Positions 1,649-5,215 of a stretch of DNA of 5,215 bases are shown piece by piece (position 1 is the stretch's first letter; the number at the start of each line of letters is the position of its first letter). The stretch comes from a virus (Duplodnaviria > Heunggongvirae > Uroviricota > Caudoviricetes). The stretch is taken from IMG/VR virus record IMGVR_UViG_2778261347_000025; one strand, written 5' to 3'. Under the pieces are notes generated by a model that was given only the letters and a program-made list of their open reading frames with translations, was not told where the DNA came from and did no database searches. Made by a program: the position numbers and the translations under genes.

Positions 1649-1858
1649 ATGCGTGAAATAAATGAAGATCGCGTAATCCGTGAGGATGAATGTCGTAAGT
1701 TAACTGGAGTGTGCCGCACTACACGTTACGAACTGGAGAAAAAAGGGCGCTTTCCGTCACGTCTTAATCTGGGCGGTCGTTCTGTAGGGTGGCTGCTGTC
1801 CGAGGTTATGGAATGGGTTAAAAGCAGGGATCGTATTAATTCAGGTAAGGCAGCGTAG
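1649..1858 (+). CDS. alpA: AlpA-family phage/island transcriptional regulator (69 aa)
   Basis: Sequence MREINEDRVIREDECRKLTGVCRTTRYELEKKGRFPSRLNLGGRSVGWLLSEVMEWV matches the AlpA helix-turn-helix pattern (..TG.SRST.Y.L...G.FP....LG.RSV.W...EV..W). ATG at 1649 has AGGT 6 nt upstream. The track ORF starts at GTG 1562, but that N-terminal extension is not AlpA-like and would make the protein longer than typical AlpA (about 70 aa). Confidence 0.85.
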   Translation: MREINEDRVIREDECRKLTGVCRTTRYELEKKGRFPSRLNLGGRSVGWLLSEVMEWVKSRDRINSGKAA

Positions 1859-1874
1859 GGGGAACATATGACAC

Positions 1875-1904
1875 ATAAAACAAAGGCGACCTGGGGCGGT
1901 CGCC
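1875..1904 (-). terminator. Rho-independent terminator, oriented for the minus strand (weakly bidirectional)
   Basis: GC-rich stem GGCGACC (1885-1891) / GGTCGCC (1898-1904) with a 6-nt loop. On the minus strand the stem is followed immediately by TTTGTTTTAT (1884-1875). On the plus strand, 26 nt after the alpA stop, the trailing tract is only AGTTTGG. Confidence 0.5.
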
Positions 1905-1968
1905 AGTTTGGAAACACTAAACATAAGCATGGCAATGATAGCCTCTATCAGGCTGGTGGGCAATGCTA

Positions 1969-2145
1969 TCAGTCTGTTTCAGTGCGTTGCCATAACTGCG
2001 AAGCTCTCTCCTTTGATGAGTATTCTTTAAGGTACTTCTCAAGGGCAAAAGAACACGGCGCGAATCGTTCTGATTCATGCTCTTTCTTTCTGCGTCGTCT
2101 TTTTCGTGCAGGTGATGTTTTTTCGGTTGATTCTTCGTTGGTCAT
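1969..2145 (-). CDS. Hypothetical small highly charged protein (58 aa), or the C-terminal part of a longer interrupted ORF
   Basis: Hand-translated minus-strand ORF, ATG 2145 to TGA 1969: MTNEESTEKTSPARKRRRRKKEHESERFAPCSFALEKYLKEYSSKERASQLWQRTETD. Below the 60-aa track threshold. No convincing Shine-Dalgarno. In the same frame as the upstream ORF 2382..2203. Terminator lies 64 nt downstream. Confidence 0.3.
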   Translation of the reverse strand: MTNEESTEKTSPARKRRRRKKEHESERFAPCSFALEKYLKEYSSKERASQLWQRTETD

Positions 2146-2202
2146 TGTGTGCGCCTGTAAAGCAATGCGCCGGAGTTCCTCACACCACGGCGCTGATAGT
2201 GA

Positions 2203-2382
2203 TTATTCTGATTCTTTGGCCTTGCGACGCTGGCGGCGTTTGATCTCGCCTCGCATGGCTGTAACGATAAATTGCGCAGTGCTCTCGCCTGTTTCTTTTA
2301 CTTGCTCCATAGCCTCAACAACTTCATGCGGGGCGCGAGCCTGTAATTTCTGTGATTTGTTATTGATATGGTCTCTTTCCAT
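2203..2382 (-). CDS. Small DNA-binding protein candidate with a ribbon-helix-helix-like pattern (59 aa)
   Basis: Hand-translated minus-strand ORF, ATG 2382 to TAA 2203: MERDHINNKSQKLQARAPHEVVEAMEQVKETGESTAQFIVTAMRGEIKRRQRRKAKESE. AAGGGA Shine-Dalgarno (2395-2390) 7 nt upstream of the ATG. Layout is a short basic N-terminal segment, helix, G-x-S turn, second helix with hydrophobic face, then a basic tail, as in Arc/CopG/MetJ-type RHH proteins (inferred by eye). The coding strand is purine-rich. Confidence 0.5.
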   Translation of the reverse strand: MERDHINNKSQKLQARAPHEVVEAMEQVKETGESTAQFIVTAMRGEIKRRQRRKAKESE

Positions 2383-2401
2383 TTCTGGTTCCCTTTGTGA
2401 T

Positions 2402-2483
2402 TACTGGAATCCAGTATACACGAAAAAGACCAAAACAAAACGCTTGAAGTGGATTCCACTTAGTGATTATACTGGAATCCAGT
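2402..2483. promoter_or_regulatory. Operator-like array of three palindromes sharing a TGGAWTCCA core
   Basis: Read directly: TACTGGA-A-TCCAGTA (2402-2416), AAGTGGA-T-TCCACTT (2447-2461), ACTGGA-A-TCCAGT (2471-2483). Centres at 2409, 2454 and 2477 give 45- and 23-bp spacing. Sites 1 and 3 share the upstream flank GTGATT(A). The array lies between the minus-strand ORF start (2382) and the plus-strand operon. Confidence 0.55.
2444..2473 (+). promoter_or_regulatory. Candidate sigma70 promoter for the plus-strand operon (TTGAAG -18- TATACT)
   Basis: -35-like TTGAAG (2444-2449) and -10-like TATACT (2468-2473). It overlaps palindromes 2 and 3. On the opposite strand a perfect TATAAT (reverse complement of 2466-2471) could be the -10 for the minus-strand unit. 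Hexamer matches only, no experimental support. Confidence 0.3.
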
Positions 2484-2578
2484 TGAGTGTTTATCACTCA
2501 ATGCAAACGAGGCTGAAAAGGATTGCCGTCCTTTCGCAGCCTCTGACCACCAACGATAGCGAAAGTATCGAGGTAGCT

Positions 2579-2782
2579 ATGAGAAATCATACCATACACC
2601 CGCAAGGGCGGGACTCGCACAACCTGAATAAATACATCTGGCGTTTTATCGCCCTGAGCACGGCACAACCGCGCGTGATTACCATCGAGGCCACCAGCGA
2701 ACAGGAAACGCGTCAGCAATCTCCTGATGGCTGCGTGATGGTATTCGCCGCCCGTATTCGTCAGGGGGTGTTCCATGCCTGA
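2579..2782 (+). CDS. Hypothetical small protein (67 aa), first gene of the primase operon
   Basis: ATG 2579 preceded by GAGGT (2570-2574). Translation MRNHTIHPQGRDSHNLNKYIWRFIALSTAQPRVITIEATSEQETRQQSPDGCVMVFAARIRQGVFHA, with E. coli-preferred codons (CTG, CCG, CGT, GCC, ACC). It is the 3' end of the track ORF 1868..2782. An in-frame ATG at 2501 (93 aa) lacks a ribosome-binding site. Confidence 0.5.
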   Translation: MRNHTIHPQGRDSHNLNKYIWRFIALSTAQPRVITIEATSEQETRQQSPDGCVMVFAARIRQGVFHA

Positions 2783-3095
2783 CATGACCAATTACCAGTA
2801 CCTGATTAATCCGCATTTTAACTGTGAGCATGATATTGCTAAAAAAGTTTATTCCGCTGCGGATGGGGCTACTGACAATATATCAATGGGTATTGCGTCA
2901 ATTGGTAGCCTGATGTGGCATGCGTCAGAAAATAAGGAATATGACGAAAAGACCATGCGCATTGATATGGGTAATATCGGTTTGTTACTGGCAATGCTTG
3001 GGCAGTTTGATATTTCGTTACGGTGCACCATTGAAAATGCCACAGATGCATTAAATGCCATAGAGAAAGCGAATACTGATTCAAATCGGGGATAA
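2775..3095 (+). CDS. Hypothetical acidic protein (106 aa)
   Basis: ORF track 2775..3095. AGGGGG (2763-2768) sits 6 nt upstream of ATG 2775. The start overlaps the previous stop by 8 nt (ATGCCTGA), indicating translational coupling. No family recognised by eye. Confidence 0.6.
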   Translation: MPDMTNYQYLINPHFNCEHDIAKKVYSAADGATDNISMGIASIGSLMWHASENKEYDEKTMRIDMGNIGLLLAMLGQFDISLRCTIENATDALNAIEKANTDSNRG

Positions 3096-3101
3096 ATAAT
3101 C

Positions 3102-3401
3102 ATGAGAACTTATTTATCTGGCTTGACTGCCAGCGGTTATGCACACCCCAAAATTATCCCCGGCGCTATTTATCTGGATAAGAACGGTAACAGAGTAACG
3201 GTAAAAGAACTGATGTTTGACCGTGTGTATTTTATCCGTGATGGCTATTCATTTCATAGTTCGCTGAACGTGGAGATCTTTATTAGCAGATTCAGGCGGG
3301 AAATCCCGCTTTCCAGAAATAACCATGTGTCATGTATCGATGTTGATAAAAAACTACAGGAACTGAAAAACATGATTGCCGCGTGGAGAGAGCAGAAATG
3401 A
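3102..3401 (+). CDS. Hypothetical protein (99 aa) immediately upstream of, and coupled to, the primase
   Basis: ORF track 3102..3401. GGGGA lies upstream of ATG 3102. Its TGA stop (3399-3401) overlaps the primase ATG (3398-3400) as ATGA. No family recognised by eye. Confidence 0.6.
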   Translation: MRTYLSGLTASGYAHPKIIPGAIYLDKNGNRVTVKELMFDRVYFIRDGYSFHSSLNVEIFISRFRREIPLSRNNHVSCIDVDKKLQELKNMIAAWREQK

Positions 3402-5215
3402 AAAAAGCGCCAAATTTAAAACACCAGCCACGTGACAAAATGACGGAAGTCATCATTTTTGCGGGTAGTGATGCGTGGGCACATGCGAAGCAGTGGCAGG
3501 AACAGGACGGGCGACTGGCTGGCGATAACGTGCCACCTGTCTGGCTTGGAGAGCAACAACTTGCCGAACTGGACAACCTGCAAATCGTACCGGACGGACG
3601 CTATCGCGTGCGTCTCTATCAGGCGGGGTTATTGAGTCCGGGGCTTGTTAATACCATCGGGCAGAAACTGGCAGTGGCAGGTGTCAGGGATGCTGATTAT
3701 TACCCTGAAGGAATGCACAGCCAGAAACGGGAGAACTGGCGCGAATATCTGGAACGTGAACGGGCAGAGCAGGCGGAAAAGAAAAAGGTAGTTGAACTGC
3801 CTGTAAAGAAAAAAGAGCGGGTAAAAGACGATAACGCTTCATCACTGGCGCTTAACCAGATGGGAGCAAGTCAACGCGGCGAAGTTCTCCTGGCACATTA
3901 TGGCGGTGAACTGGCGATTCATGCTGACTCTGACACTGTTCACTATTACAACGGCGTTGTATGGGAGCCAGTACAGGATAAAGAATTACAGCGAGCTATG
4001 GCACAGATTTTCATTGATGCGGAGATCAGCTATTCGCAGAACGCCATTAAATCGGCGGTCGATACCATGAAGTTAAGTTTGCCTGTAATGGGGAATACAG
4101 CCCGTAACCTGATTGGATTCAGTAACGGTGTTTTTGATACCCGGACAGGCGATTTTCGGGAGCATAACAAAAACGACTGGTTGTTAATTGCCAGTGAATT
4201 ACCTTTCAGCCCACCAGCAGAGGGGGAAACGCTGGCAACACATGCGCCGAATTTCTGGAAGTGGTTACGCCGTTCGGTGGCTGAGAATGACCGCAAGGCG
4301 GATCGCGTACTGGCTGCATTATTCATGGTGCTGGCGAACCGGTACGACTGGCAGTTATTCATTGAGGTAACAGGTCCAGGGGGAAGTGGTAAAAGCGTGA
4401 TGGCGGAGATTTGCACCATGCTGGCGGGTAAGGCCAACACGGTATCGGCAAGCATGAAGGCGCTGGAAGATGCCAGGGAACGCGCGTTAGTGGTTGGCTT
4501 TTCGCTGATTATCATGCCGGATATGACCCGTTACGCTGGTGATGGCGCAGGAATTAAGGCCATTACAGGCGGTGACAAGGTGGCAATCGACCCGAAGCAT
4601 AAAGCCCCCTACTCAACACGCATTCAGGCGGTAGTGTTGGCGGTGAACAATAACGCCATGTCATTCAGTGACCGCAGCGGGGGGATTTCACGTCGTCGGG
4701 TGATATTCAATTTTTCGGAGGTTGTACCGGAAAACGAACGCGACCCCATGCTGGCAGAAAAAATAGAAGGAGAGCTGGCGGTTGTGATTCGCCACCTGCT
4801 TACTCGTTTTTCTGACCAGGACGAAGCTAAACGCCTGCTGTATGAGCAGCAGAAATCAGAAGAAGCTCTGGTGATAAAACGCGAGGGCGATTCGCTGGTG
4901 GACTTCTGCGGCTATCTCATGTCGTCGGTAATGTGTGATGGTCTGTTAGTGGGTAATGCCGAAATTATTCCGTTCAGTCCGCGCAGGTATCTTTATCACG
5001 CCTATCTGGCATATATGAGGGCACACGGATTCGGTAAACCTGTAACACTGACGCGCTTCGGTAAAGATATGCCGGGGGCAATGGCGGAATATGGCAGGGA
5101 GTATATGAAACGGAAAACGAAGCACGGTTTGCGTTCAAATGTGACCCTGACAGAGGATTCAGAAGACTGGATGCCATCATGTGCATCGGTCACAAATGAC
5201 GATGGAAAAAATTAA
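3398..5215 (+). CDS. Replication protein: P4-family primase / SF3-helicase-type NTPase (605 aa)
   Basis: Track ORF 3383..5215 begins at a GTG; the more likely start is ATG 3398 (MKKAPNLKHQ...) with GGAGAG 7 nt upstream. Walker A GPGGSGKS at 4373-4396, followed by a hydrophobic-D segment LIIMPD (4505-4522), as in the phage/plasmid primase P4-family C-terminal domain. The N-terminal roughly 120 aa (EVIIFAGSDAW ... RDADYY) has an E...DxD pattern compatible with a small Toprim-like domain (tentative), then a K/E-rich linker. Stop TAA is at 5213-5215, the window end. Confidence 0.85.
   Translation: MKKAPNLKHQPRDKMTEVIIFAGSDAWAHAKQWQEQDGRLAGDNVPPVWLGEQQLAELDNLQIVPDGRYRVRLYQAGLLSPGLVNTIGQKLAVAGVRDADYYPEGMHSQKRENWREYLERERAEQAEKKKVVELPVKKKERVKDDNASSLALNQMGASQRGEVLLAHYGGELAIHADSDTVHYYNGVVWEPVQDKELQRAMAQIFIDAEISYSQNAIKSAVDTMKLSLPVMGNTARNLIGFSNGVFDTRTGDFREHNKNDWLLIASELPFSPPAEGETLATHAPNFWKWLRRSVAENDRKADRVLAALFMVLANRYDWQLFIEVTGPGGSGKSVMAEICTMLAGKANTVSASMKALEDARERALVVGFSLIIMPDMTRYAGDGAGIKAITGGDKVAIDPKHKAPYSTRIQAVVLAVNNNAMSFSDRSGGISRRRVIFNFSEVVPENERDPMLAEKIEGELAVVIRHLLTRFSDQDEAKRLLYEQQKSEEALVIKREGDSLVDFCGYLMSSVMCDGLLVGNAEIIPFSPRRYLYHAYLAYMRAHGFGKPVTLTRFGKDMPGAMAEYGREYMKRKTKHGLRSNVTLTEDSEDWMPSCASVTNDDGKN

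Follow-up and report, generated by a model that had tools for sequence, protein, structure and literature searches.

The minus-strand gene pair and its junction

Within a 5,215-nt stretch of DNA from IMG/VR virus record IMGVR_UViG_2778261347_000025 (the window, by which we mean that whole stretch), two small open reading frames (ORFs) follow one another on the minus strand in the same frame. Comparison with homologous loci leads us to conclude, with high confidence, that they represent two separate conserved genes of one satellite island, ordinary apart from their antisense nesting within a long plus-strand frame, and we reject their interpretation as a broken pseudogene or as a readthrough product. 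The upstream ORF (gene 1; 2203..2382, minus strand) encodes a 59-aa YlcI/YnfO-family protein with a predicted ribbon-helix-helix (RHH) fold and is the first gene of a leftward operon, while the downstream ORF (gene 2; 1969..2145, minus strand) encodes a 58-aa basic protein and is the second. RefSeq holds both as separate coding sequences (CDSs), WP_000439004.1 ("YlcI/YnfO family protein") and WP_172435545.1 ("hypothetical protein"), respectively. The window itself is a P4-like or cf-PICI-like (capsid-forming phage-inducible chromosomal island-like) satellite of E. coli O157.

A sequence-only reading of the window had placed ORFs of 59 aa (2382-2203) and 58 aa (2145-1969) in one minus-strand frame, and translation of 1960-2400 bears this out. 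MERDH...KAKESE terminates at a TAA (2205-2203), 19 sense codons (SLSAPWCEELRRIALQAHT) follow, and MTNEES...RTETD then begins at an ATG at 2145 and ends in two consecutive stops; a fusion across the TAA would be 137 aa long. The unit is also bracketed as that reading described, with a promoter-like site and 14-nt palindromes upstream and a terminator-like hairpin (1904-1885) downstream. A shared frame is unremarkable, however, being expected by chance in one case out of three, and a run of 19 stop-free codons has a chance of about 0.4.

Gene 1 matches the YlcI/YnfO family model NF041551 (NCBIfam; DUF3950 in Pfam) over its entire length, covering model positions 1 to 42 of 42 with 72.3 bits against a cut-off of 30. 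Like the small proteins of the E. coli DLP12 and Qin prophages that belong to this family, it falls within the family length of 59 to 64 aa and sits in a mobile-element context; it differs in being divergent from a satellite icd-primase operon and in lying beside repeats that covary with its protein. All 108 YlcI relatives recovered across Enterobacterales measure 52 to 75 aa, and the YlcI gene of Klebsiella and Serratia islands is solitary, no small ORF following it. A structure model built for database homologues of YlcI consists of a short N-terminal segment and two helices, and its structural neighbors are mostly RHH proteins, the best being antitoxins such as MazE6, TacA2, ParD2, and VapB12. 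Judged from this model, gene 1 may share its fold with RHH repressors (P22 Arc/Mnt, CopG, omega) and RHH antitoxins, although its sequence similarity to these families is insignificant; in common with them, it lies beside its own promoter, where repeated or palindromic sites occur. When the PDB was searched by sequence with each of the two proteins and with a YlcI profile, the matches were at chance level only. In a two-frame test, the YlcI gene showed 63 synonymous and 32 nonsynonymous changes, with 11:6 in the discriminating class. The literature that we searched assigned no function to the family of either gene and drew no link between YlcI and satellite regulation.

We read the junction between the two genes in more than 20 loci, which yielded 16 distinct sequences. 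In all 16, the spacer (2146..2202, minus strand) is exactly 57 nt long, the upstream stop occupies the same place, and gene 2 begins with ATG. At none of the loci is the TAA replaced by a sense codon, a possibility that the sequence-only reading had proposed to look for in homologous islands. Nor is the single interrupting stop a general property, as 10 of the 16 variants carry a further in-frame stop within the spacer. Variable spacer columns are distributed 12/14/12 over the three codon phases, and the spacer is therefore not coding. What it does conserve is an inverted repeat, GCGCCGTGG ... CTACGGCGC (minus-strand arms 2193-2185 and 2175-2167), which occurs once in the island, and a CAGG at 2157-2154 that forms a weak Shine-Dalgarno sequence for gene 2. 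The same spacer and small gene are joined to four upstream partner types, namely the 59-aa YlcI protein, a divergent form of 65 aa, a form of 101 aa that contains an insertion, and an Arc-like protein of 57 aa that is unrelated.

These features decide between the three options left by the sequence-only reading, of which two small genes is the one that holds, given that homologous islands carry the same stop together with two separately conserved ORFs. Had an ancestral protein of about 137 aa been split by a nonsense mutation, leaving the downstream ORF as a remnant, one would expect what the window shows, that is, a common frame, a single stop between the ORFs, and a weak Shine-Dalgarno sequence before the second. 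No intact homolog of 120 to 140 aa was found among relatives of either half, however, nor any YlcI relative above 75 aa. Searches covering 5.8 billion clusters and 1.84 billion representatives brought up no fusion of YlcI to the small protein. Every locus that we read has the stop, second stops and the lack of codon-phase bias mark the spacer, the upstream protein fills its whole family model and is a standalone gene in other genera, and RHH genes of four unrelated types precede the downstream gene, all of which leaves a decayed gene barely credible. The supposed absence of a ribosome-binding site, which had been taken as the sign of a fragment, is half right: the Shine-Dalgarno sequence in the window is weak, but the CAGG lies 8 nt before the ATG, and a conserved CAGG(A) at the right distance makes this a poor argument for decay. 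Programmed readthrough, by which a 137-aa fusion spanning SLSAPWCEELRR would be made alongside the 59-aa protein, is scarcely conceivable. All that speaks for it is the common frame and, in the window, the run of 19 sense codons, whereas second in-frame stops would block the fusion in most relatives and the spacer is not conserved as protein. Furthermore, the TAA in the window is followed by T, a context that gives the most efficient termination in E. coli. Because of the constant stop, the fixed 57-nt spacer, the second stops, and the four upstream types, a split gene is excluded and readthrough is untenable. The ORF pair hence resolves to two ordinary, already annotated small genes, with no recoding event or gene decay to record.

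The predicted small basic protein of gene 2

Comparison of substitution patterns on the two sides of the stop, suggested in the sequence-only reading, set the noncoding spacer against a small ORF that looks coding on the minus strand. Gene 2 belongs to phrog_21027, a PHROGs family without annotation (E=3e-12, 51/58 residues). A stop-to-stop search recovered 34 clusters, all from Escherichia, Shigella, or E. albertii, to which the family is confined, being absent from islands of other genera. The same start methionine is found in 29 of 29 complete, nontruncated members (52 to 72 aa), and three longer relatives represent C-terminal frameshift extensions, not N-terminal fusions. Profile searching of the 1.84 billion representatives added two divergent members (P0040 and P0037) that keep the core F/Y-x-P-C-x-F-A-L-E-x-F-L-K. 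The family alignment contains 16 invariant columns and places this conserved core between variable N and C termini. AlphaFold (AF2) predicts a disordered, Arg/Lys-rich N terminus and one long helix at residues 29 to 57 (pLDDT 72). A tblastn search of deposited phage genomes with the small protein gave no match, and Pfam, NCBIfam, and PADLOC yielded no match of gene 2 to a toxin, defense, or known domain family.

Substitutions among 14 distinct gene 2 sequences favor its own frame. The ratio of nonsynonymous to synonymous substitution rates (dN/dS) is 0.29 in that frame, 0.47 in the stop-free antisense frame, and 0.65 to 1.4 in the others. We also counted frame-discriminating substitutions, defined as single-site differences whose local context is identical. 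Of these, 14 are silent in the ORF frame alone and 5 in the antisense frame alone, the expectation under neutrality being 30:37 (p=0.01); within the conserved core, the count is 7:0 in favor of the ORF's own frame. In addition, the CAGG upstream of the ATG is invariant in all 16 junction variants and extends to CAGGA in most relatives. On this sequence evidence, gene 2 is probably a real protein-coding gene.

Two other accounts of gene 2 have to be weighed against this. It may be that the ORF is untranslated and owes its conservation to the plus-strand frame, to the RNA of a leftward 3' untranslated region, or to antisense pairing with an alpA read-through transcript. The antisense frame is indeed stop-free in all variants with a dN/dS of 0.47, indels would occur in multiples of three anyway in keeping the plus frame open, and the gene has a weak Shine-Dalgarno sequence in the window, a narrow family, and no known domain. 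Against these points stand the discriminating substitutions, which favor the minus-strand ORF over the neutral expectation both overall and in the core, the invariant ATG and CAGG, and a conserved core beside variable termini, as in real small proteins; moreover, in the part of the plus frame that is open to a test by itself, no constraint on amino acids is seen. We therefore regard an untranslated ORF as unlikely. A type II toxin-antitoxin pair, with an RHH antitoxin as gene 1 and a small toxin as gene 2, would fit the gene order, in which the RHH gene comes first and the small partner second, as well as the identity of the best structural neighbors of YlcI, which are antitoxins. Yet the databases searched hold no toxin match for gene 2, which is predicted to be a single helix with a disordered basic tail, and the genes lie 57 nt apart instead of overlapping. 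In addition, YlcI has no C-terminal extension for binding a toxin, other genera carry it without gene 2, and the variants of gene 2 are reassorted among RHH types. Taken together, we give the toxin-antitoxin account little credence. Our best guess is that gene 2 encodes an accessory regulatory or nucleic-acid-binding factor, favored over a toxin because this reassortment of variants, the lack of any match to a toxin or defense family, and the absence of the gene from islands of other genera point that way.

In islands L023 and L024, two tandem copies of the cassette are present at about 2300-3650, the first with a degenerate RHH remnant followed by an 81-aa homolog of the small protein. Separately, a perfect 12-nt inverted repeat (2097-2108 / 2419-2430; GTCTTTTTCGTG / CACGAAAAAGAC) relates the Arg/Lys-rich coding part of gene 2 to the leftward 5' untranslated region. 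By eye it is not conserved in relatives, and we treated it as a chance occurrence.

The antisense eta-like frame

Overlooked in the sequence-only reading, an eta-like open frame of 304 codons (1868..2782, plus strand) covers both genes, the intervening spacer, and the promoter region in antisense orientation, terminating in an Icd-like protein. The frame is open from 1859, and its ATG at 1868 lies 9 nt after the alpA stop, behind AGGGGGA. Nested as its terminal part is an Icd-like (P4 Kil-like) gene of 67 aa (2579..2782, plus strand; WP_244575653.1; NF033153, E=5e-18). When synonymous codons were resampled in the two minus-strand genes and the noncoding segments shuffled, the chance of an open frame of 304 codons came to about 1e-4. 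In all 28 loci examined, including those of Klebsiella and Serratia, one plus-strand frame is stop-free for 180 to 805 codons over the cassette, versus 10 to 48 stops in the other two. The upper values come from L023 and L024, in which the antisense frame is open across both cassette copies (785 to 805 codons). The distance from a YlcI motif to the icd ATG is 209, 215, 218, or 224 nt, so that 15 of 16 loci agree in phase despite great sequence divergence among their promoter regions. The noncoding part of the frame shows no sign of amino-acid constraint, with 2 synonymous versus 12 nonsynonymous changes and no wobble excess in this small sample. By analogy with P4, this is most likely an eta-like frame on which selection acts for translatability. 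Because the plus frame is kept open through the region, indels occur in multiples of three.

The corresponding open frame of P4 begins where vis ends and reaches position 8168; at its C terminus it matches NF033153 (E=1e-20). P4 kil is the terminal part of eta, and a promoter is located inside eta (Forti et al. 1999, as summarised in PMC10111431), and, as far as that summary goes, eta is translated only from an upstream promoter and coupled to the alpA homolog, its translation preventing termination (PMC10111431). The window frame resembles eta in ending with the same Icd/Kil-like domain, in starting at the end of a vis/alpA gene with a promoter predicted inside it, and in being open in all relatives. 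Unlike eta, it crosses an antisense two-gene leftward operon and a promoter region, neither of which P4 has. By the same analogy, the window frame may serve in antitermination. The nesting is a variant of a known arrangement, and it extends the principle of P4 eta: the same kind of frame is found in many islands, where it crosses an antisense operon and constrains codon choice in the embedded genes.

The frame also explains why annotation of this stretch is split between genomes. In RefSeq, the homologous stretch appears as two minus-strand CDSs in some genomes and as a plus-strand pseudogene, labeled "hypothetical" or "Icd-like, missing C-terminus", in others, with inconsistent annotation at L003 2827-3184, L004 2839-3432, L005 2839-3286, and L007 3009-3348. 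The antisense eta-like frame accounts for the occasional plus-strand "Icd-like" pseudogene that PGAP calls in place of the minus-strand genes. In L004, the Arc-like RHH gene was left unannotated.

Predicted divergent promoters, proposed regulatory model, and satellite context

Upstream of gene 1, the intergenic region (2383-2578) contains a predicted divergent promoter/operator region (2402..2493) in which three TGGAATCCA-type repeats accompany overlapping -10 elements. The leftward promoter-like site P_L (minus strand) has a -35 at 2493-2488 and a -10, TATAAT, at 2471-2466, and the rightward P_R (plus strand) has a -35 at 2444-2449 and a -10, TATACT, at 2468-2473 (9/12 consensus positions), with its TTGAC-type -35 conserved in relatives. 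A repeat search placed the three copies at 2402-2415, 2447-2458, and 2470-2483, the first and last being 14-nt palindromes (TACTGGAATCCAGT), and two of the repeats overlap the P_R core and the P_L spacer. Intergenic regions of related islands (L003-L031) have about three copies of another, island-specific 10-mer at the same spacing. The repeat sequence varies together with the residues in the predicted beta-strand of the neighboring RHH protein, in the manner of immunity types: LTTVRV occurs with GGTGTGTTTC in L012 and L019, S(L/V)TARI with GTGTAAGAC in L016-L018, KLQARAP with TGGAATCC in the window, and KLQTRAP with TGGAGTCC in Klebsiella L026. RHH proteins that differ mainly in the beta-strand have different repeats. 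Since the repeats overlap the promoters and covary with beta-strand residues, it is plausible that the YlcI-family protein binds the TGGAATCCA-type repeats and controls both promoters.

Considering all of these data, we propose a model in which the two genes would be transcribed as a leftward operon from P_L (~2466-2493) to the terminator at 1904-1885. The RHH protein of gene 1 would bind the three island-specific repeats over the back-to-back promoters, repressing the rightward icd/kil-primase operon as well as its own promoter. After the strong TAA-T stop and the fixed 57-nt spacer with its inverted repeat and CAGG(A) ribosome-binding motif, gene 2 would be translated from its own ATG to give a nucleic-acid-binding or regulatory accessory factor coexpressed with the regulator. 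On the opposite strand, the frame at 1868-2782 would be maintained free of stops, which would let ribosomes trailing alpA-driven transcription translate across the region and thereby forestall premature, Rho-type termination ahead of the replication genes. Repression by gene 1 and antitermination by the plus frame are both deduced from sequence features. As a whole, this explanation, with two independent genes, a leftward operon, a regulator at divergent promoters, and an eta-like plus frame, is in our judgment probable, and it makes the cassette a testable candidate for a protein that regulates Gram-negative PICI-like satellites at their divergent promoters.

Several observations weigh against parts of this explanation. 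Both small proteins are known from sequence only, the translation and function of gene 2 are inferred, and P_L and P_R are consensus matches only. The gene 2 family is narrow (9 representatives at 50% identity), and its Shine-Dalgarno sequence in the window is, as noted, weak. The antisense frame shares wobble positions with gene 2 and must itself stay open, so that the in-frame indels and part of the synonymous excess are not independent evidence of coding. The plus frame does not reach the Icd-like domain in L005, L019, and the Klebsiella loci; its end there lies just before the icd start or overlaps it. The inverted repeat in the spacer is 93% paired across variants but includes one compensatory pair, a level of covariation that shuffled sequences match, and the hairpin of the window contains a U.C mismatch and is not more stable than shuffled sequence (fold z-score -0.5). 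Given this single compensatory pair, shuffle-level covariation, and ordinary stability, the hairpin was rejected as an RNA element and kept as a conserved inverted repeat only.

A more elaborate scheme, which we offer tentatively as a possibility short of even odds, would make the RHH cassette the repressor module of Gram-negative PICI-type satellites, embedded antisense in an eta-like frame that is selected only for translatability and protects read-through transcription driven by alpA against Rho. Selection would in that case act simultaneously on the two strands of about 700 bp, on one for protein sequence and on the other for openness and phase alone. The small basic protein, given its Arg-rich N terminus and the conserved hairpin that directly precedes its gene, could be an arginine-rich-motif RNA binder acting on the termination and antisense circuit.

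Rfam models found no match on either strand of the window at E up to 1, including to C4/CI or isrK/seqA RNA. C4 (P4 CI-like) and isrK (seqA-like) RNAs were matched in P4 and in L002, L008, L014, L015, L022, and L023. Some islands carry these RNAs downstream of the rightward promoter alongside the RHH cassette, while the closest relatives of the window are without them. Replacement of P4-type RNA immunity by the cassette was accordingly discarded as a general rule, as several related islands possess both, and the cassette is better regarded as an additional layer than as a simple replacement. The int-alpA RNA (RF02996) was detected in L006 and L026.

Two further features were noted around the promoter region. 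A direct repeat, TAGTGATTAT(T/A)CTG, relates the YlcI stop codon (2197-2210) to the shared -10 region (2461-2474) with 13 of 14 positions identical. An internal promoter at the end of the YlcI gene, considered on account of this repeat, was dismissed, the -10-like bases not being conserved in relatives, and the repeat is probably due to chance. In the leader of the Icd-like gene, two plus-strand hairpins were found. The one at 2510-2542 shows compensatory changes in 6 of 8 pairs across nine islands, and the other, at 2549-2574 (ACC..CGATA / TATCG..GGT), does not vary. The pairing of this second hairpin involves the GAGGT Shine-Dalgarno sequence at 2570-2574, an indication that the kil-like gene may be controlled at translation.

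The DNA of the window is identical to that of E. coli O157 strain AR-0427, and similar stretches were located at 1013 places, distributed over 715 of the 5426 complete E. coli genomes. Gene order in AR-0427 runs from an integrase through an alpA-family regulator, the two minus-strand ORFs, the Icd-like protein, a hypothetical protein, and DUF4222 to a primase. The alpA/vis-family regulator gene (1649..1858, plus strand; RefSeq annotation; phrog_2790, E=1.6e-17) lies directly upstream of the eta-like frame and is convergent with the leftward operon. Between them, a terminator scan identified the intrinsic-terminator-like hairpin of the leftward operon (1904-1885, minus strand), GGCGACC-GCCCCA-GGTCGCC followed by TTTGTTTTAT; read on the plus strand, the hairpin is followed by no T run. 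PADLOC returned no matches. Downstream of the window in L001 (10500-12074), the same island encodes a small terminase subunit and a major capsid protein, suggesting a capsid-forming PICI-type satellite rather than a classical P4.

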